Assembly (NCBI RefSeq): GCF_048403405.1
Contig: NZ_CP183129.1
Reading direction: 5' to 3' (one strand)
DNA length: 64,000 bases
Source of the DNA: Escherichia coli
GTDB taxonomy: Bacteria; Pseudomonadota; Gammaproteobacteria; Enterobacterales; Enterobacteriaceae
Shown piece by piece: positions 35,825-36,482 of the stretch (position 1 is its first letter; each line of letters starts with the position of its first letter). Position numbers and translations under genes: made by a program. The notes below the pieces were generated by a model. The model worked only from the letters and a program-made list of their open reading frames with translations. It was not told the DNA's origin and made no database searches.

Positions 35825-36482
35825 ACTTAACTCCACTGTCACACTTAACTCCCTTTCCCTTATTGGAATGCAGAGAAATAATCCTCGAGAATATGATTTA
35901 TCATGCATATAAAATAAGAAAAAGGAAAATGAGTAAAATTAGGAAAACATAAAGATACGGGTTCTTATAAAAACAGAATCCATTGCCGTGGAAAGCGTCA
36001 TTTACCACAGCATAATAATCCATAATGTTTTTGTTGCGAAAACAATCTAATCATAACTACCACGAATACTCAATCATCCACAAAATGGATTAAATGTGCT
36101 TTTTTAATAATTAATTTATATGTTTAATGCATTAATTCTTAACATTAATTGATCAATAATATTCACCAAATGAATATCAAAAAATTCGCAAAACATATAA
36201 TTCAATACAAATCATCAGGATAGGTTTTGCAACGCGTGCATTTTGCCCCCTTTTTCCTCGTTGATTAGATGCAAAATTTTATTTTGAAATATGTCAACCG
36301 ATGAAAAGCAGCGGTGGTTAAGCAGAAATTAATATCGCTTGTTTTAACCACCGCAGCACAATTAGCTAATTTGACTGATGCAGAACTCACGCTGGCTGGA
36401 CGTTTTTGTTGCATCAGGGTTGACATCCGTTTTGGTATCCAGTAACTCTAAAAGCATATCGCATTCATCTGGAGCTGATTTA

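Follow-up and report, generated by a model that had tools for sequence, protein, structure and literature searches.

What does the long AT-rich gap between leuO and leuL do in this 64-kb stretch of an Escherichia coli genome (64,000 nucleotides, hereafter the window), and which of its features matter? LeuO is a master antagonist of H-NS that switches on CRISPR-Cas, multidrug efflux, and virulence-related genes, and the region that holds leuO silent is therefore biologically important. leuO, on the minus strand, has its start codon at 35822-35824 (CAT when read on the plus strand), and the leuL ATG occupies 36483-36485 on the plus strand; the spacer therefore runs from 35825 to 36482 and measures 658 bp, exactly the coordinates and length given in an earlier note on this DNA. 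We named the flanking genes via the RefSeq annotation of NZ_CP128875 (complete E. coli genome TUM14771), which is 100% identical over the region, and that of K-12; the same annotations bear out the assignment of leuO and leuL as a divergent pair. Gene order in NZ_CP128875 is ilvI, yabR, leuO, leuL, leuA, leuB, and the orientation in the window is the same. The K-12 spacer (NC_000913.3 83709-84367) is 659 bp long, as the earlier note had it (658 versus about 659 bp).

34880-35824, minus strand: leuO coding sequence, a LysR-type regulator of 314 amino acids (open reading frame; RefSeq WP_001115472.1 in the identical record).
35825-36482, no strand assigned: leuO-leuL divergent intergenic region, 658 bp, 33.1% G+C (659 bp in K-12, 95.6% identity).

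We put the probability at roughly 0.9 that this region is the shared control region of divergent leuO and leuLABCD in E. coli, present here as an ordinary strain variant, and we found nothing that contradicts the identification. The control region is real and was rightly located and interpreted, but it is already known and has been studied for decades; the earlier note did not mention three elements within it, namely its marbox, LeuO site, and BglJ-RcsB-like site. Read from its sequence, the leuL end consists of a sigma-70 promoter followed by the leucine attenuator, the leuO end holds a conserved block, a putative proximal promoter, with a BglJ-RcsB-type box, and between the two ends lie some 440 bp of very AT-rich DNA with a LeuO palindromic core and a marbox.

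On the far side of leuO, the leuO-ilvI spacer contains yabR, a 14-codon small gene at 34681-34725 (plus strand) that is annotated in the identical RefSeq record and in K-12 and is labelled a pseudogene or hypothetical in some strains. Directly after the leuO stop codon, at the edge of this equally AT-rich spacer (33% G+C), a long hairpin, paired over about 20 bp and trailed by a T run (34832-34877, minus strand), is a likely leuO terminator.

The leuL end is defined by the following elements.

36420-36456, plus strand: leuLABCD promoter, with -35 TTGACA at 36420-36425, a 17-bp spacer, -10 TAACTC at 36443-36448, and a start at about 36455/36456 (by-eye comparison).
36469-36618, plus strand: leucine operon leader/attenuator RNA including the terminator hairpin (Rfam RF00512, full length).
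36483-36569, plus strand: leuL leader peptide, 28 amino acids, with four consecutive Leu codons (RefSeq WP_032141177.1).

These promoter elements were placed by eye against the leuL promoter of Salmonella, for which Fig. S1 of PMC10268841 marks the start, and conservation of the promoter in the cross-genus alignment is near 100%. The match to RF00512 (Leu_leader), at 143.1 bits and E = 1.2e-32 against a gathering score of 50, supports leuL. Within the promoter spacer, a T-to-G change at 36434 gives CCGTTTTGGTATCC instead of CCGTTTTTGTATCC and leaves the -35 and -10 hexamers intact; the G is absent from 11 other Escherichia sequences compared. The leader peptide WP_032141177.1 is the rarer variant, K-12 and all seven other E. 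coli sampled ending in ...GRRVSGIQH, and its control run of four Leu codons is unchanged.

The leuO end is more intricate, with a conserved leader, two promoter-like elements, and an activator box.

35825-35858, minus strand: conserved leuO 5' leader with two copies of GGAGTTAAGT, Shine-Dalgarno-like (direct repeat D3; cross-genus conservation 70-100%).
35887-35903, minus strand: putative proximal leuO promoter P2, with an extended -10-like TGATAAATC at 35903-35895 and a probable start at about 35887/35888.
35933-35954, minus strand: BglJ-RcsB-like box CTTTATGTTTTCCTAATTTTAC (17/22 positions match the K-12 bgl BglJ-RcsB site, same register).
36012-36040, minus strand: candidate distal leuO promoter, TTCGCA, 17 bp, TATTAT (consensus scan match).

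The putative proximal promoter is a strongly conserved block, TATATGCATG(A/G)TAAATCATATT. The published BglJ-RcsB site of leuO lies 57 bp upstream of the P2 start and has the core motif wwTTCykA (PMC3950696); counted from the centre of the BglJ-RcsB-like box, this distance therefore places the putative P2 start near 35887/35888, just downstream of the conserved extended -10-like element. The box agrees with the wwTTCykA core (PMC3950696) and is conserved across genera, and its k position is T in the window and G in K-12, both of which fit the motif. The hexamers of the candidate distal promoter are the same TTCGCA/TATTAT pair that is given for leuO among RpoD 'constitutive promoters' (PMC3946193). 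We only tentatively equate this candidate with the published P1, as its -10 shows little conservation beyond Escherichia.

A 17-nt direct repeat, 88% identical and 246 bp apart, has one copy within the BglJ-RcsB-like box (AAAATTAGGAAAACATA, 35935-35951) and another that adjoins the LeuO core palindrome (AAAATTCGCAAAACATA, 36181-36197). We rejected the second copy as the real BglJ-RcsB site, since it is without the TTC core and matches the bgl site more poorly than 35933-35954 does.

In the leuO leader, the upstream copy of GGAGTTAAGT precedes an in-frame GTG at 35842-35840 (minus strand), which lies 18 nt ahead of the annotated leuO ATG and has its own GGGAG Shine-Dalgarno sequence (35840-35852, minus strand). 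A GTG or ATG is kept at this upstream position in nearly all genera examined and is the sole start in Kluyvera. Judging from these comparisons, LeuO may start six codons earlier than annotated, or two starts may be used. A structured 5' leader was rejected, its fold being no better than that of shuffled sequence (z = 0.47).

Between these two ends, the DNA is very AT-rich. Segments of 658 bp across the 64 kb average 52.7% G+C (sd 3.7%), compared with 33.1% in the spacer, which also carries 33 A/T tracts of at least 4 nt; the earlier description of the region as strongly AT-rich with A/T tracts is thus accurate. The 658-bp segment of minimum G+C in the whole window begins at 35827, and only 0.06% of segments are as low as the region. 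The low G+C of the spacer is far beyond chance for the 64-kb window. Both spacers flanking leuO are the most AT-rich crude intergenic stretches in the window, and the leuO-leuL spacer has an extreme centre.

36090-36215, no strand assigned: extreme AT core, 17.5% G+C (composition; loose H-NS motif matches cluster here).

This core is likely the main zone of H-NS nucleation and filament formation, as its composition and motif clustering suggest. It is also a candidate counterpart of the AT-rich silencer of Salmonella, a link that we infer.

The high-affinity H-NS nucleation motif is reportedly the 10-bp TCGATAAATT, said to go back to Lang et al. 2007. The spacer holds no close match to it, the best matches carrying 2 mismatches. 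Loose matches are denser in the spacer than nearly anywhere else in the window, and their count equals that of composition-matched shuffles. Enrichment of the high-affinity motif was therefore rejected, as base composition accounts for the counts.

Curvature prediction, a check named by the earlier note, was done by a wedge-model calculation. By this calculation, the spacer averages 42.9 degrees/63 bp versus 26.0 for the window, and its local peak at about 36299 falls at the 99.3rd percentile, with at least 10 separate sites elsewhere in the window higher. The top predicted curvature in the window, about 103 degrees/63 bp, is found near 56416 and near 6856, well above the leuO-leuL spacer. Helical phasing of the A-tracts was considered and rejected, the spacer having no clear or consistent 10-11 bp signal.

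Silencing is described in published work. The K-12 leuL/leuO spacer is bound by H-NS in all of the ChIP-chip studies compiled in one survey (Table 1, code 'A'; PMC3661553), and leuO is silenced by H-NS and StpA in K-12 (PMC5025477); H-NS occupancy in vivo, together with derepression in hns/stpA mutants, is reported for K-12 (PMC3661553, PMC5025477) and for Salmonella as well (PMC10981669). The earlier note's statement that the region is known for H-NS silencing agrees with this literature (PMC3661553, PMC5025477), and further work covers H-NS/StpA silencing, autoregulation, and the promoter relay (PMC12494820).

Within the AT core lies a sequence match to a LeuO binding site.

36159-36177, no strand assigned: LeuO core binding site (sequence match), ATATTCA-CCAAA-TGAATAT, a perfect 7-5-7 palindrome (half-sites as in the cas palindrome).

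A 19-bp 7-5-7 palindrome has been described at cas site II, together with a nearly identical counterpart within LeuO site I near leuO (PMC6698644). The half-sites of the window's core, ATATTCACCAAATGAATAT, are identical to those of ATATTCATACTGTGAATAT, a perfect palindrome from the casA-cas3 spacer of K-12, and a scan of the K-12 cas and leu spacers returned exactly one shared palindrome pair, ATATTCATACTGTGAATAT (cas) and ATATTGATTTGGTGAATAT (leu). The K-12 LeuO core, ATATTCACCAAATCAATAT, has one mismatch, and a C-to-G change makes the window's palindrome perfect. Among eight other E. coli compared, K-12 included, the perfect palindrome occurs in strain 980-2 only, and species representatives of other genera have no close match at the same position. 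The perfect core might change LeuO autoregulation.

We took 80 leuO loci from other Enterobacteriaceae and aligned 20 of them with the window and K-12. In 74 species, the leuO-leuL spacer has a median length of 634 bp (interquartile range 622-653) with a coefficient of variation (CV) of 0.037, compared with 0.234 for the adjacent leuO-ilvI spacer. Its G+C content ranges from about 31 to 44% and is 31-40% in all but one species. Outside Escherichia, only about 50-60% of nucleotides match the window overall, but short islands stay 80-100% conserved. Between the leuO promoter block and the marbox, the DNA measures 443 +/- 14 bp across the family. Compensating indels that hold the total length were rejected, since segment lengths lack negative covariance; the constancy therefore reflects few and small indels in each segment. 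We infer from these comparisons that spacer length is probably under constraint across Enterobacteriaceae.

Two blocks inside the AT-rich spacer, 36044-36078 and 36140-36165, are conserved across genera; the second includes the palindromic TTGATCAA, whose Dam site (GATC) occupies 36151-36154.

Of the upstream elements, a marbox is the best conserved across genera.

36356-36370, plus strand: marbox GCACAATTAGCTAAT, a MarA/SoxS/Rob site (15-mer identical to the published site).

In ETEC, MarA ChIP-seq assigned the identical 15-mer to leuL<>leuO, and its in vitro binding is scored +++ (PMC5684230 Table 1); the Salmonella homologue of the marbox is bound by MarA, Rob, and SoxS (PMC10268841), which makes two species with in vivo binding. 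The marbox is in forward orientation and centred about 92 bp upstream of the leuL start. Class I marboxes are in reverse orientation at -53 to -73 and class II marboxes in forward orientation at -30 to -42; the leuO-leuL site fits neither class by position and orientation, and the Salmonella leu marbox has been placed under 'other promoters' (PMC10268841). In most of the 74 loci, the marbox is 49-53 bp from the leuL -35. A spacing of 38-41 bp occurs in at least four separate lineages (one Citrobacter, the Enterobacter hormaechei group, the Klebsiella oxytoca group with Raoultella, and Pseudescherichia), and none of the 74 loci has a spacing of 42-48 bp. This step amounts to one helical turn, which suggests that the site must face the leuL promoter. 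These counts, which ignore phylogeny, suggest a helical-phase constraint that keeps the marbox and the leuL promoter on one face of the helix. The marbox could be a functional, non-canonical, long-range input that links Mar/Sox/Rob stress to leucine biosynthesis or to leuO derepression.

Taken together, the spacer of about 440 bp would be a length-calibrated element, and the marbox a functional, non-canonical, long-range input locked to one helix face; we offer this combined reading tentatively and consider it rather doubtful. A length-calibrated spacer may tune H-NS filament formation or the way in which supercoils couple the leuO promoter to that of leuLABCD. We found no mention of the length constraint or of the marbox phasing in the papers that we consulted.

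Within E. coli, the region is close to universal. Of 5426 complete E. coli genomes, 5378 contain at least 80% of it, mostly at 95-97% identity, with 99% or more in only eight genomes, and spacer length is 657-659 bp in nine E. coli genomes, the window and K-12 included. Identity to K-12 is 95.6% in the spacer, 98.1% in leuO, and 97.4% in the 5' part of leuA; compared with other E. coli, the spacer is 95-97% identical and the flanking coding DNA 96-99.7%. We rejected an unusual divergence of the window's allele and read the spacer divergence as ordinary for non-coding DNA. The changes that we checked against K-12 recur in other E. coli strains, the promoter-spacer G excepted. One record labelled Escherichia coli, L005 (NZ_JAATUR010000005.1), is only 82-89% identical to the window in the leuO region and groups with Escherichia sp. 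E1V33; it is therefore probably another Escherichia species. The strongest hairpin of the spacer is specific to the window's lineage.

36308-36357, no strand assigned: inverted repeat GCAGCGGTGGTTAA, 22 nt, TTAACCACCGCAGC, lineage-specific (fold -21.8 kcal/mol versus -14.5 in K-12).

This repeat, with arms of 14 bp, was rejected as a conserved hairpin, terminator, or cruciform, as it is absent there in other genera and weaker in K-12. Since other genera have no hairpin at this place, the repeat is probably not functional.

Might the spacer instead be neutral, mutation-biased non-coding DNA, of which only about 100 bp at each end matter and whose AT-richness and length have no function? Its central 440 bp are mostly poorly conserved in sequence across genera, it diverges from K-12 somewhat faster than the flanking coding DNA (95.6% versus 97.4-98.1% identity), and the counts of H-NS-like motifs are explained by base composition alone, all as neutral DNA would have it. 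What it leaves unexplained is a length that varies by a CV of 3.7% over about 74 species, versus 23% for the leuO-ilvI spacer, and a G+C content that stays at about 31-44% in genomes of much higher G+C. The interior also contains islands that are 80-100% conserved, including the marbox, 36044-36078, and 36140-36165, and published genetics place silencing and relay functions there (PMC5025477, PMC4264507). We regard neutrality as improbable.

A foreign origin can be argued from the literature: the K-12 leuL/leuO spacer is among 78 promoter islands and overlaps one genomic-island prediction, and such islands have been argued to be linked to acquired genes (PMC3661553). On this account, the AT-rich stretch would be a horizontally acquired remnant (a 'promoter island') that H-NS silences as foreign, and the rather low G+C of the leuO coding region (38-52%) would fit. 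However, the spacer has the same flanks, orientation, length, and internal sites in all genera sampled (Escherichia, Salmonella, Citrobacter, Enterobacter, Klebsiella, Kluyvera, Kosakonia, Atlantibacter, and others), and its distribution is not patchy, extending to 5378/5426 E. coli genomes and every enterobacterial genus sampled. Given this family-wide synteny, the spacer is ancient and vertically inherited at the family level, which excludes a foreign remnant; the reading retains hardly any credence. We give just as little to an unannotated gene, for a small protein or a small RNA, that would account for the spacer's length. K-12 RefSeq annotates nothing in the spacer, a permissive Rfam search of 34000-37500 found in it only the Leu leader, and its strongest hairpin is lineage-specific. 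Open frames of 40-53 codons do occur in the window, and one in the leuO sense, 36023-35901, has counterparts at about the same position in several genera, but it is broken by single-base indels and has an in-frame stop in Salmonella. We rejected a hidden small protein in the spacer because the open frames are not conserved in frame across genera.

For a control region shared by leuO and leuLABCD, the main activities are already described. LeuO binds within the spacer, counteracts H-NS, and represses its own promoter (PMC5025477, PMC6698644), and BglJ-RcsB activates the proximal leuO promoter (PMC5025477, PMC3950696). An ilvIH-leuO-leuABCD promoter relay, in which supercoiling driven by transcription links the promoters and each is activated in turn through its neighbour, is known from Salmonella Typhimurium (reviewed in PMC4264507; PMC10981669). 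From work on K-12 and Salmonella, we extrapolate that H-NS and StpA would cover the AT-rich DNA and hold leuO silent. LeuO bound within the spacer would limit or remodel the H-NS complex and would also repress its own promoter, and BglJ-RcsB would activate the proximal leuO promoter. Negative supercoils arising from transcription of ilvIH, leuO, and leuLABCD would pass through the easily unwound spacer as the 'promoter relay'. The orientation of the genes here, with ilvI and leuO on the minus strand and leuL and leuA on the plus strand, is compatible with a relay. The relay claimed for the region by the earlier note likewise has literature behind it (PMC4264507, PMC10981669), although it was worked out in a Salmonella leu-500/topA background and not in E. 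coli. Because the experiments were done in Salmonella, transfer of the relay to E. coli is an assumption.

Our analysis adds a family-wide view of this region, in which conservation applies to length, low G+C, and a few short islands and not to the sequence throughout. It also adds evidence for phase-locking of the published marbox to the leuL promoter, and the observation that some E. coli lineages, including that of the window, have a LeuO core palindrome free of the mismatch found in K-12.

The closest known system is the K-12 leuL-leuO region itself (NC_000913.3 83709-84367), with the same flanking genes and orientation and 659 instead of 658 bp. K-12 and the window agree fully in the leuL -35 and -10 hexamers, the marbox, the candidate distal leuO promoter, and the block at the proximal leuO promoter. 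Among the 29 differences (95.6% identity) are the C-to-G change in the LeuO core, a G-to-T change in the BglJ-RcsB-like box, the T-to-G change within the spacer of the leuL promoter, and an improved inverted repeat (36308-36357).

The leuO-leuLABCD region of Salmonella Typhimurium, known from the Wu laboratory for its promoter relay, AT-rich silencer, and LeuO barrier, has the same gene order, ilvIH-leuO-leuLABCD, and spacers of 655 and 645 bp in the two subspecies sampled, at about 33% G+C. Salmonella and the window have in common the marbox, the leuL promoter, and the proximal leuO block; nevertheless, the two spacers share only about 61% nucleotide identity, and the Escherichia LeuO palindrome was not found at the same place in Salmonella.

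Among H-NS-silenced loci with a dedicated anti-silencer, bgl, casA, and yjjQ-bglJ are likewise AT-rich and repressed by H-NS/StpA. Sequence matches point to common factors, with a LeuO palindrome common to cas and leu and a BglJ-RcsB-like box common to bgl and leu. Unlike in bgl, casA, and yjjQ-bglJ, the silenced gene leuO itself encodes the anti-silencer, and, again unlike those loci, the leuO region also serves a housekeeping biosynthetic operon under attenuation.
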